A stretch of DNA of 64,000 nt from Pseudomonadota bacterium (lineage in GTDB: Bacteria; Pseudomonadota; Alphaproteobacteria; Paracaedibacterales; CAITNM01), in contig JAGOSL010000001.1 in the NCBI GenBank assembly GCA_018062345.1, positions 170,493 through 234,492 of the forward strand. The letters are read 5' to 3'. The notes under the pieces were generated by a model. That model was not told the DNA's origin. It did not search any database and saw only the letters and a list, made by a program, of their open reading frames with translations. Shown here one piece after another: positions 20,592-28,492 of this stretch. Each line of letters starts with the position of its first letter. The stretch's first letter is position 1. Both the position numbers and the translations under genes were made by a program.

Positions 20592-21845
20592 ATGATAAAA
20601 TTACCCAAGAAAATTCTGGCTTCTTCAATACTTGGTGGCATGGTGGAATTTTATGATTTTACAATTTATGGATTTTTTGCACCGATTATTGGCCCCTTAT
20701 TTTTTCCATCTCATGATGCGCTTGTGTCTACCCTTTTAGGGTATGCTGTCTTTGCTGTGGGTTTTATTTTGCGGCCTTTGGGGGCAATGTTTTTTGGTAA
20801 TTTGGGCGATAAGATTGGTCGAAAAAAAGGGTTATGTTTGTCATTGTTTTTGATGGCTTTTGCAACCGGCATGATGGGAATTCTTCCCACTTATGCTGAG
20901 TGGGGTATATATGCTTCATTTTTAATGATTTTTGCACGCATACTTCAAGGGCTATCAGCAGGTGGGGAGTATTCTGGAGGAATTATTTTTGCCGTAGAGC
21001 ACTCTCCTTCTAACGCAAAAGGTCGCGCTGGAAGCATTGTTGTTGCAGGGTGTATGAGTGGGGTGTTTTTGGGGGCTTTAGCTTCATACCTTTGCAGTTT
21101 GCCTTTTTTGAGTAGTTGTGCTTGGGGGTGGAGAATTCCTTTTCTTTTAGGATTTTTTATCTCGATTATAGGATTATATATTCGCACTAATACGTCAGAA
21201 TCAGTGGAATTTAAAAGAAGCAAAATAATAGAAAATCCGCTTTCATATGGGATTAAAAATTATCCCTATCAATGCATAGCAGCTGTTGGAATTGCAGCGT
21301 TTAGTGGTGTGTTTTATCCTATTCTTTCTATGTTTATGCCAACATACTTAACCAAGGTTTTGGGGATGCCGCTGAGCCAAGCGAAATTGTTTTCTCTTGT
21401 TATGACAGTAACAATGGTAAGCTTAATTCCTGTATTTGGGTCTATTTCTGATAAACTTGGCAGGCTTTTAATGATGAGATTAAGTGCAATTTTGGTAAGC
21501 GTGCTTATATTTCCTTATCTATGGAGTCTTGAGTATTCTTCTTTTATGGGCATTCTTGCATCAGGTATGTGTGTTACTTGTGTTGTGGCTATGTTTATGG
21601 GCTGTATGAATACTTATCTCTTGGAAATTTTTCCTGTTAATGTGCGCTATAGCTGTTTTGGGTTTTTCTACAGCATTGGAATGGGGATTTTTGGAGGTAC
21701 TGCTCCAATGATAGGCACTTATTTTTTAACGTTACCTTCTAGTTTTATTATCCTCGGTATTTATTTGATTTTTGGTTGCATGTTGGGGTTATTGGGTGTT
21801 GCAGCCTCAAGGCGACATGTCGGTGTGAATACTAGTCTCGCTTGA
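20592..21845 (+). CDS. MFS transporter, metabolite:H+ symporter (ProP-like) family
   Basis: 417 aa with 12 TM. GGMVEFYDFTIYGFFAP and GNLGDKIGRKKG motifs. Confidence 0.85.
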   Translation: MIKLPKKILASSILGGMVEFYDFTIYGFFAPIIGPLFFPSHDALVSTLLGYAVFAVGFILRPLGAMFFGNLGDKIGRKKGLCLSLFLMAFATGMMGILPTYAEWGIYASFLMIFARILQGLSAGGEYSGGIIFAVEHSPSNAKGRAGSIVVAGCMSGVFLGALASYLCSLPFLSSCAWGWRIPFLLGFFISIIGLYIRTNTSESVEFKRSKIIENPLSYGIKNYPYQCIAAVGIAAFSGVFYPILSMFMPTYLTKVLGMPLSQAKLFSLVMTVTMVSLIPVFGSISDKLGRLLMMRLSAILVSVLIFPYLWSLEYSSFMGILASGMCVTCVVAMFMGCMNTYLLEIFPVNVRYSCFGFFYSIGMGIFGGTAPMIGTYFLTLPSSFIILGIYLIFGCMLGLLGVAASRRHVGVNTSLA

Positions 21846-22606
21846 GAAGCAGATTTAAGTAAATCTGTTTTTTTATCGACTCCTAATTTGCGCTTAATGT
21901 TTTCGATATACCATTCAATCGTTCGGGGAGAACGATTAATGCATCGTGCTATTTCTTTACTTGTATATCCTGCGCTTATAAAATCTAAACATTCTCGTTC
22001 GCGTGTTGTTAATAAAGTTTCTGGAGTCTTTATTTTTTTTATGGGTTCCTCTGGTTGATTTTTTGCAGAGAAAATGTTTGGATTAACAGTAGATTGAGAA
22101 AATTGAAGGAATTCACTTCTTTTGGCAATGCTTAACAGTTTTTCTTTAAAATCAGTGTAATACTGTTCGAGTAAGTGGGATTGGTTAAGGTAATAATTTA
22201 CCCAATCGGCTCCCCCTTCTGCGTTAGAAAAATAAAATCCTTCAATAAAATCATTACATTTGATGTAGCAACAAATGGTATTCCATATTCCTAATTGATA
22301 TAAATGTCGAGACAATTCATCTTTGACTGCTGGTAAGCCCATGCGAACTATATGGTATTTTCCTGAATGATAAGTATTAGTGACTTCTGTTTCGTAGCGA
22401 CCTAACATTATTTCTGATAAATGATTAATGAAAAAGTGGTTCCATTGCTTATTATCTGACCAACCAAAGCTTTTGCCCGATCGATCAAAGCAGCGATAAC
22501 CAAATACACTGGTTTGTAAAAAGGTTGGTAAAAGAGGTTTTAGATTCGTGGTTAAAGTGTCCGTAAAAGCCAAATGATTTGAAGGTATCATCACTTTATT
22601 GCCCAT
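21761..22606 (-). CDS. LuxR-family transcriptional regulator with an uncharacterised N-terminal domain
   Basis: C-terminal HTH LTTRERECLDFISAGYTSKEIARCINRSPRTIEWYIENIKRKLGV. The roughly 190-aa N-terminal domain was not recognised. Its 3' end overlaps the convergent MFS gene by 85 nt. Confidence 0.8.
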   Translation of the reverse strand: MGNKVMIPSNHLAFTDTLTTNLKPLLPTFLQTSVFGYRCFDRSGKSFGWSDNKQWNHFFINHLSEIMLGRYETEVTNTYHSGKYHIVRMGLPAVKDELSRHLYQLGIWNTICCYIKCNDFIEGFYFSNAEGGADWVNYYLNQSHLLEQYYTDFKEKLLSIAKRSEFLQFSQSTVNPNIFSAKNQPEEPIKKIKTPETLLTTRERECLDFISAGYTSKEIARCINRSPRTIEWYIENIKRKLGVDKKTDLLKSASQARLVFTPTCRLEAATPNNPNMQPKIK

Positions 22607-23322: not shown

Positions 23323-23709
23323 ATGAGCAGTATATTTGTAGTTTTATTATTGATGATTAGCACGCTATATGCAGGTATGGAAGAACGAGAGGGTCGTTCT
23401 TCTAAACGCGCTTTTGTTGCTATGAAGCGCATGTATTGGGCTGATCAACAAGAAGAAGCTGCTGATAAAAGGCGAAAAAAATATCGACTTGGTAATACAG
23501 CAAACAAGGATTCAAGTCCTGTCGCTAAGCGTCAGCTAATTCCTGTTAAAATGTCAGTTCTAGAAGATAAGATCCGTCTAAGCTATGAACCTGCAGCCTA
23601 TAAAGCAGAGAAAAATTTGCATTTCGTCGGGCATCAAGATAAATCTCAACTAATTTCGCAAGCGCGTGAGCCTGATTTTCTTTCTCATAAAGAACAAAAA
23701 TCAGGATAA
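23323..23709 (+). CDS. hypothetical secreted, basic protein (128 aa)
   Basis: N-terminal hydrophobic signal MSSIFVVLLLMISTLYAG followed by a Lys/Arg-rich body. No family recognised. Confidence 0.4.
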   Translation: MSSIFVVLLLMISTLYAGMEEREGRSSKRAFVAMKRMYWADQQEEAADKRRKKYRLGNTANKDSSPVAKRQLIPVKMSVLEDKIRLSYEPAAYKAEKNLHFVGHQDKSQLISQAREPDFLSHKEQKSG

Positions 23710-23849: not shown

Positions 23850-25703
23850 TTGAGCTCAGCGAGTGCATTTAATAAACTTGATTTTTTAAAGCCGCTACAG
23901 CGTGCACGTTTGGCAACTGTTGCAACAGAGGAGGTAGTAGGATCAGGCAAAGTTATCTTTAAAGAAGGTTCTGCATCGAAATTCTTTTATGTGTTGCTTG
24001 AAGGAAAGGTTGAAATTCAGAACAAAGTTAGAAAAGAAGTTATTTCAAAGGGGAATTTTTTTGGTACTGAAGTGCCTTGTGGTATTGAACAGTACCTTTT
24101 TACCGCTGTTACAAAAAGCAAATGTACGCTTTTAAAAATAAAAAAGGAAGTTTTGTACGATACGATTGATCAACTTGATTTACAAAAATTTCAGAAACGA
24201 TTTTTACAAAATTTTGTTGGCACATTTTATTCGCAAAAATTTTTAGTATTTAAAAAAGACTCAGCAGAGCAGTTGTTTGCTCAAGCAGATCGATTTTGGA
24301 TTGATGGTTTGGGCTGGATATTAGCCGCTGTCGTTCCATTCATTATGCATTGGCTTCTCAATAAAACGACAATGAATCATCAAAGTCAGATTTTCTTGTC
24401 GATTCTTTCGGCATGGTCAGTCATTGCAACTTTTCGTTTGCTTTCAGATTATGTGGCCACAATGATGACAATTTTTCTTTTAATTGGCGGAGGTGTTGTT
24501 AAAACAAAGGTTATTTTGGCGGGGTTTAGCTCAAGCAATTTCATTGTGGCTTTAAGTCTTTTGGGTCTTTCAAGTGTGTTGGTTTCCTCGGGTGTTGCTT
24601 ATCGAGTATTGATAAAAATTTTAAAATTTTGTAGGCCAACTTATTGGGGTGACAATTTAATTTTATTAAGCATCGGTGGGTGGCTAACTTTAGGAGTTCC
24701 CTCATTTTTGATGCGCATGGATATGATGAAAATTTTCTACCAAGATGCTTTGCGAGTTCGTAATTTATCAGAAAATTCTAAGCAAGCGCAGGCAATGGGT
24801 TTTAGTGCGTACTGCGGGGCTGGAATTTTTTCTCAAAGTATTTTAAGCGCGTCAATGATGCATTTTGTATTGCTAGGATTTTTTTGGGGGCAATACTCTA
24901 GTCAGTTTGATTGGTGGGAATGGCTTTTTGCTTCTTTAGGTTCTCTTACTGTGCTTCTGGTGGGATATTTTCTCGTGGTTTACTTTTCTTTTGGCAAAAG
25001 AGATAAGTATCAATCGCCGCTTAATGCTGATAAAAATCACTTAGAAGATATACTAGAGATTTTGGGGCCAACTTCTTCTACTGAAAAGGCTTCTTTAATT
25101 TGTATGTTTGGGGCAATTTTAAGCCTTGCAACTGTTAGCTTGCATGACATAGCACCTGATGTCATTTGTTTGTTGATTTTGCTTTTTCTTTTTACTTTTC
25201 AGTTTATGAATGATAAGGGATTTCAAACACGCATCAAATGGGATTTCCTTATTTTTATGTGCGGTTTGTCAGGTATTGCTTTTGCTGCCAGTGACGTCGG
25301 GCTTATAGGCTGGCTTGAAGACAATACAAAATGGATGGGCGAGTATTTTAACCACCATTTTTTTGAACTAACAACGTTTATGATTGTTTTTACACTTTTA
25401 ATGCAGTTAATCCTTCCAAGAGATGTGAACATTAATATCTTAAGCATTATGTTTATTCCACTATTTCAAAAAAATGGTGTTAATCCATGGATTGCGGTTT
25501 TTGTTATTAACACCATTGGTAGAGTTTGGTTCTTCGAATATCAAGAGCCTGAATATGCAATTTTCACAAAGAATACCAAGAATTTTTCGCTTGATATGTC
25601 AGGCGTGATTAAGAAAACACGAATAAGATTGAATATATTCTATATTATTTCAATTTATGTTGGGATTTATTACTGGAAGTGGATTGGGATTTTGTCATGG
25701 TAA
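23850..25703 (+). CDS. fusion of an N-terminal cyclic-nucleotide-binding-like (CAP-fold) domain to a DASS/SLC13-like (ion-transporter superfamily) permease
   Basis: The N-terminal 125 aa carry GKVIFKEGSASKFFYVLLEGKVEI...GNFFGTE. At least 10 hydrophobic helices follow, including GFSSSNFIVALSLLGLSSVLVSSGVAYRVLIKIL. TTG start. Confidence 0.6.
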   Translation: MSSASAFNKLDFLKPLQRARLATVATEEVVGSGKVIFKEGSASKFFYVLLEGKVEIQNKVRKEVISKGNFFGTEVPCGIEQYLFTAVTKSKCTLLKIKKEVLYDTIDQLDLQKFQKRFLQNFVGTFYSQKFLVFKKDSAEQLFAQADRFWIDGLGWILAAVVPFIMHWLLNKTTMNHQSQIFLSILSAWSVIATFRLLSDYVATMMTIFLLIGGGVVKTKVILAGFSSSNFIVALSLLGLSSVLVSSGVAYRVLIKILKFCRPTYWGDNLILLSIGGWLTLGVPSFLMRMDMMKIFYQDALRVRNLSENSKQAQAMGFSAYCGAGIFSQSILSASMMHFVLLGFFWGQYSSQFDWWEWLFASLGSLTVLLVGYFLVVYFSFGKRDKYQSPLNADKNHLEDILEILGPTSSTEKASLICMFGAILSLATVSLHDIAPDVICLLILLFLFTFQFMNDKGFQTRIKWDFLIFMCGLSGIAFAASDVGLIGWLEDNTKWMGEYFNHHFFELTTFMIVFTLLMQLILPRDVNINILSIMFIPLFQKNGVNPWIAVFVINTIGRVWFFEYQEPEYAIFTKNTKNFSLDMSGVIKKTRIRLNIFYIISIYVGIYYWKWIGILSW

Positions 25704-26764
25704 GTAGTATTAACGAAGCCAAGCAAAAATCTTTAATTCTAAAAATGCTAAAAGGCATAGTTTTTTCAAGTCTATTGGGGCTTTTGCTATTTTATAATTT
25801 AAGTCGACCCAAGATTATGATTGTGCATAGCTATGATCCAACTTTGGATATTGTGGAAGATTTCGATAAGGGGGTGAAGAAAAGTTTAGAAAATAAAATT
25901 GGTCCATTGGTGCAAAGTTATTATCTTAATATGTTTAGTAAAAATACGATCAAGCAAAAAACTGAAGCTGGAGTTGAGGCCAGGGCATCTGTTGATCGTT
26001 TTAAGCCTGATATACTAATTGCTATTGGTGACGAAGCTCAAGAATTTGTTGCAAAATTTTATTTAGGCGAAAAGAAAATGAAAGTGATTTTTGCCGGTGT
26101 GAAAGGAGATTTAGAAAAAATCGGATATATCCCAGAGAAAAATGTAAGTGGAATCATTGAAATGCCTCAGCTTCAAGAATTAAATAAATTAATTAATCAT
26201 ATGTTTCCTGGGAAAAAAAATATTCGTTTAGCGCATTTAGGAGATACATCGACAATTGTAAGTTTGACAGAGGAAATGTTGACTCAATACGTGTGGAAAA
26301 ATGTCAAATTTCAAGATTCAGTAAAAGTACTTGATATTAATAATTTTAAAAAAGCAGCACAGCTTTTGGATAAACATTGTGATGTATTGCTTATTTCAAG
26401 TTACAGGGGATTAAAAAGCGGTCTCGATACTGAAGAAGATATTATTTCCACAGAAGCCATGCAGTGGGTTATAAACAACACTTCAATACCTATTGTTTCA
26501 ACGTTTGGGTATGCCGTTGAAGAAGGGGCGGGTGTTGCTATTGTCTCATCAGCATATGAGCAAGGAACGCTTGCGATGGATTTAGCGCTAAAAATGCTAG
26601 AGGATGATTCCCACCATGCCAGTGCGATTTCTAAGGTTTTTGCTGTATACCTTAATGATACCCATTTAAGTAAATGTAATATTCAAATCCCCTTAATTTA
26701 TCGATCTTTTGCGGTTGGCACTCAAAAACTATTTGAAACAGCTAAATCAGAGGAAAGTTTATGA
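25697..26764 (+). CDS. membrane-anchored periplasmic binding protein, ABC_sub_bind (PF04392)-like
   Basis: One N-terminal TM (IVFSSLLGLLLFYNL). It then has IMIVHSYDPT...FKPDILIAIGDEAQEF...VIFAGV...NVSGIIE...IPIVSTF...EQGTLAMDLALKML, which matches the family pattern from memory. The ATG overlaps the upstream stop (ATGGTAA). GTG at 25679 is an alternative start. Confidence 0.55.
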   Translation: MVSSINEAKQKSLILKMLKGIVFSSLLGLLLFYNLSRPKIMIVHSYDPTLDIVEDFDKGVKKSLENKIGPLVQSYYLNMFSKNTIKQKTEAGVEARASVDRFKPDILIAIGDEAQEFVAKFYLGEKKMKVIFAGVKGDLEKIGYIPEKNVSGIIEMPQLQELNKLINHMFPGKKNIRLAHLGDTSTIVSLTEEMLTQYVWKNVKFQDSVKVLDINNFKKAAQLLDKHCDVLLISSYRGLKSGLDTEEDIISTEAMQWVINNTSIPIVSTFGYAVEEGAGVAIVSSAYEQGTLAMDLALKMLEDDSHHASAISKVFAVYLNDTHLSKCNIQIPLIYRSFAVGTQKLFETAKSEESL

Positions 26765-27699
26765 GAACGTTTATAGCTTTCATATTTTTCTTTGCATGCT
26801 TTTCTATTGATGGACGTATCCAAATACGTCAAACAGGATCCTCTACTATATATCCATTTGCGGTAAAAGTGGCTCGTGAGTTTTCTAAAAAAGCAGAATA
26901 TGTATATCCTTTGATTGAAAGCACAGGCACTGGTGATGGTTTTATAGATATTGTAAAAACAAAAAATGGTAATTGGTGCGATATTGTTGGCGCTTCTAGG
27001 CCGATTAAGCGGTCAGAATTAGAAAAATGTAAAAAAGCAGGCGTTATTTCAATGATGGAATTATGTATTGGTCTTGATGGCATTGCTTTAGCTACTCAAA
27101 AATCTTTGAAAGGATTTGAAGATTTTCGAGTACAGGATCTTTATGCTGCAATTGCTATGAAAATTAAAAATGATAAAGGGGTTTTGGTCGATAATCCTTA
27201 CCAAAAATGGAATGAAATTAATCCTAATTTACCAAATATTCCTATTCGTATTTTAATACCCTCTAAATCTCATGGTACGCGTGATGCTTTTGAAAATCTT
27301 ATTATGCATGGTGGGTGTGAAATTAGAAAAGGCAACGAGGTGCGTGAAATTAGTGCTTATGAGGTTGCGGATAATCATCATCTACTGTTTGATTTTTTGG
27401 AACGCAATACTGATGTAGTAGCGTTTATAGCGGCAAGTCTTTTGCAAAGTCGAGATCATATAAAAGCTTTACGAATAAATGGTGTAGAGCCAACTTATTT
27501 GAATATTCAAAATGAAACTTATCCCTTAATTCGAAAGCTGTTTATCTATGTTCGAAAGGAAAATTATGCAACCACAGAAAGTTTGCAAGCTTATGTAAAT
27601 GAGTGGTTTAGCCCTGAGGCCATTGGAGAGCATGGTTATCTTACAAAAATGGGTTTAGTCTCTCTTCCTGAAGGTACTAAAAACAGCAAAATTCTTTGA
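26761..27699 (+). CDS. PstS-family (PBP_like_2) periplasmic substrate-binding protein
   Basis: Signal peptide, then RQTGSSTIYPFAVKVAREF. ATGA overlap with the upstream gene. No pstCAB is adjacent. Confidence 0.65.
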   Translation: MRTFIAFIFFFACFSIDGRIQIRQTGSSTIYPFAVKVAREFSKKAEYVYPLIESTGTGDGFIDIVKTKNGNWCDIVGASRPIKRSELEKCKKAGVISMMELCIGLDGIALATQKSLKGFEDFRVQDLYAAIAMKIKNDKGVLVDNPYQKWNEINPNLPNIPIRILIPSKSHGTRDAFENLIMHGGCEIRKGNEVREISAYEVADNHHLLFDFLERNTDVVAFIAASLLQSRDHIKALRINGVEPTYLNIQNETYPLIRKLFIYVRKENYATTESLQAYVNEWFSPEAIGEHGYLTKMGLVSLPEGTKNSKIL

Positions 27700-27745: not shown

Positions 27746-28492
27746 ATGAGCAAACTTTTAGTCGTAGTATGTTTGTCTTTGCTTGGATTATTTGCAAGTT
27801 CACAATACGAATCATTTATAAAAATGCAAGAAGATGCTCATGGGATTCCTTCATTGTTGTTGCGTGCTGTTTCCAATGTGGAATCAGGGCGTTTGATGGG
27901 AGGAAAAATTTCTCCATGGCCTTGGACAATTAATGTTGAAGGTAAAGGGTATATCTTTGAAACTAAGCAAAAGGCAATTCAGGCAGTTGAAAGATTTCAA
28001 AGAATGGGGGCGAAGAGTATCGATGTAGGAATCATGCAAATTAACTTGCGTCATCATCCTCACGCTTTTCGTAACCTTGAGGAAGCTTTTGATCCGCAAC
28101 TTAATGTTTCATACGGTGCTAAATTTTTAAAGCAATTATTTCAACAACATAAAAGTTGGCATTCAGCAATTGGCCATTATCACTCAGCTACACCTAAATA
28201 TCATAATGCTTATAAGCAAAGAGTAATGAGTAACTGGGCACGGCTTACCAACAATAAGAGCCAAACGCCTCGTTTGGAGCGAGCAGTAATGAAATTTGAT
28301 AATGTAGATGAGCTTGCAAAGGTGCCTAAAGTTGTAAAAAAAATTGAGCGGCAAAACATCACTCCTTTTGCAAGGGTTAAAAAGGTTTATTATTCCCTAG
28401 ATTCAGGAGCGCCTTCTCAAGCGATACAAACTAAAAAAACTAGTTATGCATTGGAAGATGCATCGAGTAAGCAGTATTATTCCTTAGATTAA
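27746..28492 (+). CDS. lytic transglycosylase (SLT domain)
   Basis: Signal peptide, catalytic VESGR, PWPWTINVEGKGY and DVGIMQIN. Confidence 0.8.
   Translation: MSKLLVVVCLSLLGLFASSQYESFIKMQEDAHGIPSLLLRAVSNVESGRLMGGKISPWPWTINVEGKGYIFETKQKAIQAVERFQRMGAKSIDVGIMQINLRHHPHAFRNLEEAFDPQLNVSYGAKFLKQLFQQHKSWHSAIGHYHSATPKYHNAYKQRVMSNWARLTNNKSQTPRLERAVMKFDNVDELAKVPKVVKKIERQNITPFARVKKVYYSLDSGAPSQAIQTKKTSYALEDASSKQYYSLD

Follow-up and report, generated by a model that had tools for sequence, protein, structure and literature searches.

A DASS/SLC13 permease with a CNB-like domain, encoded with a tethered binding protein and a PstS-like protein in an alphaproteobacterium: a candidate binding-protein-assisted secondary transporter

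Gene organisation of the operon

The sequence analysed here, hereafter the window, is a stretch of 64,000 nucleotides (GC content around 37%) from contig JAGOSL010000001.1 of the Pseudomonadota assembly GCA_018062345.1 (positions 170,493 to 234,492 of the forward strand), which is classified in the alphaproteobacterial order Paracaedibacterales. Positions given below are those of the window unless a different locus is named. The window includes an operon of three genes on the same strand (Table 1). Gene 1 encodes a permease of the DASS/SLC13 family fused to an N-terminal domain similar to cyclic-nucleotide-binding (CNB) domains, gene 2 encodes a membrane-anchored protein with a predicted periplasmic-binding-protein fold, and gene 3 encodes a PstS-like protein. 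Genes 1 and 2 form a widespread and previously undescribed pair, which may represent a new kind of binding-protein-assisted secondary transporter. Uptake that depends on a binding protein and does not use ATP was long thought to be confined to the TRAP and TTT systems.

A preliminary description of the window, made from the sequence alone, had reported overlapping stop and start codons between the successive genes, and both overlaps were confirmed by reading the sequence. They are not due to chance, since the start of gene 2 overlaps the permease stop by the same 4 or 7 nucleotides in most of the approximately 50 distinct loci recovered, which range from 36 to 66% in GC content. The ATGA-type overlap between genes 2 and 3 was also present in the related loci L001, L011-L018 and L099. 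The longest open reading frame (ORF) of gene 2 begins further upstream, with a GTG at 25679. The description had also noted that no ABC component was adjacent to the operon. This holds for the entire 64-kb window, in which no ORF carried the LSGGQ signature of ABC proteins and a homolog search found no PstC, PstA or PstB, and no class III cyclase either.

Table 1. Genes, overlaps and sequence features of the operon, with positions in the window.
Feature	Position	Strand	Description
Gene 1	23850..25703	+	617 aa, TTG start; CNB-like domain fused to DASS/SLC13 exchanger-type permease
CNB-like beta-roll domain, residues 31-107	23940..24170	+	PF00027 cNMP_binding, E 1e-10, 41.8 bits vs cutoff 27.5
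Degenerate phosphate-binding cassette GTEVPCGIEQYLFTA	24063..24107	+	Tyr82 in canonical Arg position
First transport hairpin tip (HPin) VPSFLMR	24696..24716	+	Aligns with first SNT motif of DASS
Second transport hairpin tip region (HPout) PRDVNIN	25416..25436	+	Aligns with second SNT motif; register uncertain by 1-2 residues
Gene 1 stop/gene 2 start overlap, ATGGTAA	25697..25703	+	7 nt; direct sequence reading
Gene 2	25697..26764	+	355 aa counted from ATG; PF04392-like, predicted type I periplasmic-binding-protein fold, single N-terminal transmembrane anchor
Gene 2 membrane anchor, residues 20-35	25754..25801	+	Hydrophobic stretch after Lys-rich segment
Gene 2 stop/gene 3 start overlap, ATGA	26761..26764	+	4 nt; direct sequence reading
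Gene 3	26761..27699	+	312 aa, putative secreted CpPstS-type phosphate-binding protein
PSKSHGTRD loop of gene 3, residues 167-175	27259..27285	+	Pro167, Gly172, Thr173 = CpPstS Pro169, Gly174, Thr175

The permease and its CNB-like domain

When used as a single sequence, the membrane domain of gene 1 found no match in the PDB, and a profile was required. The profile, built from 18 diverse homologs (alignment A2), matched AtDiT2.1 (E 2e-45), AtDiT1 (1e-40), LaINDY (2.5e-33) and VcINDY (2e-17), and these matches establish the domain as a true member of the DASS/SLC13 family (TC 2.A.47). The Pfam family CitMHS was matched above its cutoff by residues 199-500 (E 5e-9). The AlphaFold2 (AF2) model of gene 1 (pLDDT 75.5) was matched by Foldseek to AtDiT2.1, NaCT, NaDC3 and VcINDY, with TM-scores on the target of 0.71-0.80, and further to NaS1 and, more weakly, to Pho90 and the TRAP transporter SiaQM. 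The predicted fold is that of an elevator transporter, with scaffold and transport domains and two re-entrant hairpins. Profile and fold thus bear out the DASS/SLC13-type segment recognised in the preliminary description, and the domain did not turn out to belong to a non-transporter family.

At the tip of the first hairpin, the profile alignments placed VPSFLMR of the window opposite PSTTARA in DiT, PSNSART in LaINDY and SNTAT in NaDC1. Arg289 of gene 1 aligned with Arg159 of LaINDY and was invariant in alignments A1, A4, A5 and A6. The LaINDY residue is the surrogate for Na1 in DASS exchangers (Sauer et al., PMC7553777), and Arg289 supplies the basic side chain at Na1 that marks the exchanger subgroup. 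For the basic replacement at Na2 (His392 in LaINDY) there was no aligned His, although Arg524 lies nearby and the register at the second hairpin is uncertain. Judged from these alignments, the nearest kin of the permease are the Na+-independent DASS exchangers (DiT, LaINDY) and not the Na+ symporters.

The second hairpin of the window permease is strongly diverged, with PIS[AT]TIV found at the same place in the core clade of the family. Neither hairpin tip in the window carries an SNT-type motif, the two reading P-S-F-L-M-R and P-R-D-V-N-I-N, whereas the core clade retains S-x-N-G-R in the first hairpin and P-I-S-A-T in the second. Conservation of the hairpin tips within the clade is strong, and this speaks for a functional binding site in the permease.

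The N-terminal domain of gene 1 matches the CNB domains of PKG, PKA and HCN in sequence and in fold. The preliminary description could not find the Arg of the phosphate-binding cassette. Its absence was confirmed by HMMER alignment to the PKG and PKA domains, in which Tyr82 took the Arg position. The Gly-Glu of the cassette is shifted, with G-T-E in the window protein instead of G-E, so that neither hallmark of the PF00027 cassette is in place. The loss of the Arg extends to the whole family, in which approximately 60 members share the pattern GEE[AS]x7[YH]xxxAxA, with Tyr or His replacing Arg. The canonical PRSAT cassette is retained in a separate, more distant group of CNB-DASS fusions of 800-900 aa. 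The ligand of the CNB-like domain may not be a classical cyclic nucleotide.

The tethered binding protein

Gene 2 matched the Pfam family ABC_sub_bind (PF04392; E 1.6e-9, 37.9 bits vs a cutoff of 25.9), while NCBIfam TrpX scored 29 bits against a cutoff of 390. In its AF2 model (pLDDT 76) a long N-terminal helix (residues 5-35) is followed by a two-lobed alpha/beta domain. The top Foldseek matches were 3LFT (with bound Trp), 3LKV and CD0873, which are ligand-binding proteins of PF04392, and the next were the signalling binding proteins LuxP, XylFII and TorT. The predicted structure is accordingly a type I periplasmic-binding-protein fold of the PF04392 kind. The Lys-rich segment ahead of the anchor implies that the N-terminus is inside and that the binding domain would lie in the periplasm. 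Pfam, the structural model and the anchor all agree with the earlier assignment of gene 2 to a transmembrane-anchored PF04392-like protein. The ABC permease or ATPase partner expected of PF04392 proteins was absent from the window and from the surroundings of more than 50 related loci, where gene 2 was in every case next to the DASS permease.

Almost all gene 2 homologs had a conserved hydrophobic N-terminal 19-mer, and every homolog retained the motif KPR[IV]L[IV]LHSYD behind the anchor, where the first strand ends. Positions of gene 2 that are conserved family-wide fall in loops and at the ends of strands, which are probably the places that hold ligands in the periplasmic-binding-protein fold.

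Such a placement of conserved residues, as predicted from the model, speaks against a reading in which gene 2 delivers no ligand. According to that reading gene 1 would be a regulated DASS exchanger, gene 2 a structural, assembly or regulatory beta-subunit with a borrowed fold, and gene 3 would do no more than increase the local concentration of phosphate, as a buffer or scavenger in the periplasm. The anchor is present in gene 2 without exception, even in diderms, and this suggests a subunit that stays in place permanently, not a binding protein that shuttles. The PF04392 match was also weak or absent in several gene 2 orthologs, and exchanger-type DASS proteins function without any binding protein (PMC7553777). 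However, the translational coupling of gene 3 persists over deep divergence, which also counts against this reading, and we consider an auxiliary, non-delivering gene 2 distinctly unlikely.

Conservation of the gene pair

When 1.84 billion representatives (clusters at 50% identity) were searched exhaustively with HMMER, 685 clusters of the permease family were recovered at E < 1e-3 and 137 at E < 1e-30. Most members were 600-630 aa long and aligned from end to end. Their public labels were generic ("SLC13 family permease" or "cyclic nucleotide-binding domain-containing protein"), and the named relatives were metagenome-assembled genomes (MAGs) of Candidatus Finniella, Candidatus Odyssella and unclassified Alphaproteobacteria.

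All of the close relatives (L001-L003 and L010-L019, 69-99% identity) possessed the complete trio. It was also found in unrelated neighbourhoods in L004 (45% permease identity), in L099/L100 (31%), which belong to a complete alphaproteobacterial genome of 1.107 Mb (CP060236.1), and in L101 (30%). Only genes 1 and 2 were present in L102 (27%). The PstS-like gene was thus restricted to the window's subfamily, where it occurs in four lineages with permease identity down to 30%. In Candidatus Odyssella MAG L019 (7001-9919) the permease and gene 2 were each split into two ORFs, and the permease was split in L016 (5491-7259); these splits are assembly-error frameshifts or incipient pseudogenes.

Metagenome contigs could not be scanned with the broad family alignments A4, A5 and A6, whose diversity was too great, but the core-clade alignment A7 worked and returned 58 loci. 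Of these, 45 were informative, combining a match to the core-clade permease (a clade approximately 27% identical to the window) with downstream DNA. In 44 of the 45 the permease was followed immediately by a gene 2 homolog (hmmsearch E from 8e-9, in the most truncated copy, to 1e-84), as it was in L001-L019, L004, L005, L099, L101 and L102. The sole exception among the 45 was L091 (339-1087), a 107-aa C-terminal permease fragment upstream of an EAA-loop ABC permease, which is probably a remnant or a chimeric contig. Apart from this truncated fragment, no ABC membrane or ATPase gene was adjacent to the trio or the pair at more than 50 loci. None of the 58 metagenomic loci had a PstS-like gene.

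Given the adjacency in 44 of 45 loci and the frequent overlaps of 4 or 7 nucleotides, the conserved unit is the pair of genes 1 and 2, to which a single subfamily has the PstS-like gene as an accessory. The co-occurrence of the trio, which the preliminary description had suggested testing, therefore stands for relatives down to 30% identity, in which the three genes are syntenic in differing neighbourhoods, but in the wider family it is reduced to genes 1 and 2. In the distant group of 800-900-aa fusions with a canonical cassette (L020-L035, L082-L092) no nearby homolog of gene 2 or gene 3 was found, though ORF calls in these high-GC sequences were ambiguous. For P0077 and P0078 the contigs were too short to reveal neighbours.

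The PstS-like protein

Gene 3 matched PBP_like_2 (PF12849; E 4e-29) and has a hydrophobic, signal-like segment at its N-terminus. The closest solved structure was 9JWY (E 5e-46), which is CpPstS, the PstS of SAR11 strain HTCC7211. Phosphate is held in CpPstS by seven residues (Ser32, Ser33, Thr34, Thr61, Ser83, Gly174 and Thr175), and Pro169 stands where an Arg is usual (PMC12421899). In a HMMER alignment S27, S28, T29, T57, S79, G172 and T173 of gene 3 fell on these positions, so that all seven ligands are retained, and P167 corresponded to Pro169. The description of gene 3 as a signal-bearing PstS/PBP_like_2 protein was thus upheld. With L101 set apart, the gene 3 orthologs differed at the ligand positions by Ser/Thr swaps only, plus an Ala for Gly in L014. 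The Ser found immediately ahead of the phosphate-binding Gly-Thr in CpPstS, and in the relatives linked to pstSCAB, is His171 in gene 3. This His was shared by the whole trio clade apart from L017 (Arg) and L101 (Asn).

The match of gene 3 to the curated PstS subfamily in NCBIfam (TIGR02136) reached 130.5 bits, under the cutoff of 206.6, and no pstCAB genes were found in the window or at the trio loci. The nearest outgroup, P0067 (37% identity), lies within a standard pstS-pstC-pstA-pstB operon, which suggests that gene 3 is a recruited PstS. Alternatively, gene 3 could be a PstS that has been displaced and serves pstCAB genes at another site in the genome, with a permease pair next to it that is functionally unrelated. 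P0067 is a normal PstS of this kind, the phosphate site of gene 3 is intact, orphan homologs such as P0069 exist, and most of the permease family has no PstS-like gene. Such a coincidental operon is nonetheless quite improbable. The order of genes 1, 2 and 3 and the 4-nucleotide overlap recur in four lineages down to 30% identity, one of them with a reduced genome of 1.1 Mb, the clade-specific His171 sits beside the ligand loop, and pst genes are absent within 64 kb.

A PRD-type motif in the second hairpin was considered as a feature that tracks the PstS-like gene. It was dropped, as L101 combines a PstS-like gene with a P-S-G-S-T motif and L102 has no first-hairpin Asn and yet no PstS-like gene. 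A loose trend remains, which was not used as evidence.

Variable neighbours and domain variants

Other genes occupied the third position elsewhere in the family. A dCache_1-HAMP-class III cyclase followed gene 2 in L005/L006, L041, L046, L074, L083 and L097 and preceded gene 1 in L055, adjoining the pair in seven distinct loci overall. A cyclase was also found in divergent orientation beside L033, a CNB-DASS member of the canonical type. An acyl-CoA-synthetase-like (AMP-binding) gene followed gene 2 in L044 (with a 4-nucleotide overlap), L045 and L078, and a gene for an AEC-family permease did so in L053 and L073. Some family members had nothing in this position. One MAG project contained two copies of the pair, L044 (WBZP01000008.1) and L078 (WBZP01000012.1), each followed by an AMP-binding gene. 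The presence of this gene after both copies, together with the overlap in L044, hints at an organic-acid substrate in that clade.

The permease itself occurred in long variants, including GAF+CNB+DASS, 4HB_MCP+CNB+DASS, a CstA-CNB-DASS protein of 1380 aa and forms with extra CNB domains (P0113, P0121 and P0201 among them). Cyclases recur in two positions around the pair, which speaks for a possible functional link of a cyclic nucleotide with the CNB-like domain, even though the Arg is missing. The neighbouring cyclases and the variants with an additional GAF domain link the family to second-messenger control.

The same observations could be taken to mean that the system senses rather than transports. 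Gene 1 would then be a DASS-like sensor or transceptor without bulk transport, which together with the binding protein and PstS, or with the Cache-cyclase, reports the status of a periplasmic solute or of phosphate. The binding proteins would act as co-sensors, by analogy with LuxP, TorT and XylFII and their kinases. The repeated adjacency of dCache-HAMP cyclases, the variants with 4HB_MCP or GAF sensor modules, the signalling proteins among the structural neighbours of gene 2 and the divergence of both SNT motifs are all consistent with such a role. However, Pfam and NCBIfam recognised no output domain (kinase, GGDEF or DNA-binding) in gene 1, and CNB domains are normally inputs. The entire 11-helix DASS body, including the exchanger Arg, is strongly conserved, and the coupled acyl-CoA-synthetase-like gene of some relatives points to the uptake of a substrate. 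A purely sensory function is therefore unlikely.

Proposed function of the system

What the data most strongly suggest about function is a joint action of the products of genes 1 and 2 at the membrane, since constant adjacency and overlap over such divergence are typical of the subunits of one complex. A binding-protein-assisted DASS carrier is the simplest model for this complex, because gene 2 has the predicted fold of a periplasmic ligand-binding protein and the permease that of an elevator carrier, as in the TRAP M subunit. The window's subfamily has gained a phosphate-binding protein and has long retained it, so that its substrate or effector is likely to be phosphate or a phosphorylated anion. 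We therefore favour a regulated, binding-protein-assisted DASS transporter that the window's clade has adapted to phosphate or a phosphorylated anion, and we regard the chances for and against this reading as evenly balanced. It is supported by the PstS-like gene, whose position and translational coupling are preserved across four lineages and in unrelated neighbourhoods down to 30% identity. There is also a precedent by analogy, as the same genetic argument was used for TAXI-GltS and the membrane subunits of TRAP transporters share the DASS fold.

Under this model genes 1 and 2 would form one membrane complex, consisting of a dimeric, elevator-type, Na+-independent DASS exchanger and an obligatory binding protein tethered by a single helix. 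The tethered protein, accompanied here by a soluble one of the PstS type, would capture an anion in the periplasm and then pass it to the outward-facing permease, or license the permease. In the window's clade the anion would most likely be phosphate or a small phosphorylated compound. The N-terminal CNB-like domain would set the activity of the permease according to a cytoplasmic small molecule. In the relatives with an adjacent dCache-HAMP cyclase this molecule would probably be a cyclic nucleotide, synthesised when a signal is sensed in the periplasm.

Several points weigh against this model. Both SNT motifs are diverged in the window (S-F-L and R-D-V), and transport by gene 1 is therefore not assured. 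Binding proteins usually impose uptake in one direction, which is hard to reconcile with an exchanger mechanism, and the need for two binding proteins in one system is unexplained. Gating by a cyclic nucleotide is doubtful in the window's clade, since the Arg that binds the cyclic phosphate is absent from the CNB-like domain. The third gene of L101 (8902-9951) has lost several of the phosphate ligands, with GAPS in place of GSST, AVR in place of ASR and G-D in place of G-T, and its product probably binds something else. As most of the permease family is also without a PstS-like gene, phosphate is not a general substrate of the family. Finally, no fusion of binding protein and permease was found among the 10 long variants, which are a small sample.

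A more specific proposal combines these elements into a widespread, hitherto unrecognised class of ATP-independent transporters, in which dimeric DASS exchangers are obligately dependent on a membrane-tethered binding protein and are switched by the second messenger of a co-encoded, periplasm-sensing cyclase. In the alphaproteobacterial endosymbionts of protists the recruitment of PstS would have turned such an exchanger into an ABC-free carrier of phosphate or organophosphate. We put this forward tentatively and would not expect it to hold in full.

If the pairing of a DASS permease with a binding protein is real, elevator-type carriers have taken binding proteins into service more than once, and the pair would offer a natural system in which to study the coupling between a binding protein and a dimeric exchanger. 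The fused sensor domain would join transport to signalling by cyclic nucleotides or other small molecules. The named relatives and a MipZ gene in the window indicate that the source is a bacterium similar to Holosporales/Paracaedibacteraceae, a group of protist endosymbionts. For endosymbionts whose genomes are reduced, the operon may reveal a route by which phosphate or phosphorylated host metabolites are acquired.

Surroundings of the operon

Upstream of the operon lies an ORF of 128 aa (23323-23709) without a Pfam match, and downstream a gene for an SLT lytic transglycosylase (27746-28492). Both were syntenic with the trio in close relatives only. L004, L099 and L101 did not show this synteny, and the two genes therefore probably lie outside the module. 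A LuxR/GerE-type regulator of 281 aa is encoded on the minus strand approximately 1.2 kb upstream of the operon (21761-22606), with no Pfam match in its N-terminal 190 residues. A scan with Rfam around the operon detected no element, and a scan for promoters and terminators was uninformative, lying under the shuffled expectation.

Between 38000 and 46000 of the window the GC skew changes sign, with a maximum of cumulative skew near 44 kb, and gene orientation switches at around 39 kb from mostly plus to mostly minus. This region may be a replication terminus or origin, or a mere boundary of strand bias. The window also contains a MipZ gene, consistent with its origin in Alphaproteobacteria.

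Comparison with known systems

The preliminary description had named TRAP and TTT as the only secondary transporters that depend on solute-binding proteins and had proposed a third architecture. Both statements are out of date, as TAXI-GltS was proposed in 2025 (PMC12344293), and the present system would be a further class. The TAXI-GltS proposal rests on linkage and translational coupling; in the Bordetella pertussis system (BP0402/BP0403) the binding protein was shown to bind glutamate, and natural TAXI-GltS fusions exist (PMC12344293). The preliminary description also knew of no described example of the present system, and none was found in the open-access papers and bioRxiv preprints searched, where no report paired DASS permeases and binding proteins, PF04392 proteins and secondary carriers, or PstS and SLC13. 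The Holosporales literature likewise contained nothing on phosphate uptake.

The DASS exchangers LaINDY, DiT1 and DiT2.1 are the best profile and fold matches of gene 1, with which they share the Arg at the LaINDY Arg159 position and, according to the model, the layout of scaffold and transport domains with two hairpins. Unlike them, gene 1 has an additional N-terminal CNB-like domain, its hairpin tips have lost SNT/STT, and it is co-encoded with a tethered binding protein, whereas no binding-protein partner has been described for the solved matches. Gene 3 resembles CpPstS of the PstSCAB systems in its ligands and in the equivalent of Pro169, but it has no pstCAB neighbour, is coupled to a DASS operon, carries His171 for Ser and scores below the PstS cutoff.

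Yeast Pho90 has the DASS fold and was among the Foldseek matches of the gene 1 model. Pho87 and Pho90, DASS phosphate transporters with an N-terminal cytoplasmic SPX regulatory domain, may offer an analogy to a DASS permease with a regulatory domain and a link to phosphate. They differ in having SPX instead of CNB, in lacking binding proteins and in being eukaryotic, and no sequence match to them was found at E < 0.01.

TRAP transporters of the DctPQM and TAXI types are, like the proposed system, elevator permeases of the same fold superfamily that work without ATP and are encoded with a periplasmic binding protein. However, the window permease is of the DASS and not the DctM family, there is no Q subunit, and the binding proteins are of the PF04392 and PstS kinds and not DctP or TAXI. 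TRAP permeases are also Na+-driven monomers, whereas the window permease is probably a Na+-independent dimer. TAXI-GltS is similar in its evidence, with a binding protein assigned to a non-TRAP secondary permease from linkage and coupling, and the genes of both binding proteins in the window are linked and translationally coupled to a secondary permease in the same way. The TAXI-GltS permease is of the ESS/GltS family and its binding protein a TAXI protein, and the fusions known there were not found here. Pfam and NCBIfam gave only DASS/CitMHS, PF04392 and PF12849 for the membrane and binding proteins of the operon, and none of the parts specific to TRAP, TTT or TAXI-GltS. The window system is thus a DASS-family system, which resembles TRAP, TTT and TAXI-GltS in its logic only.

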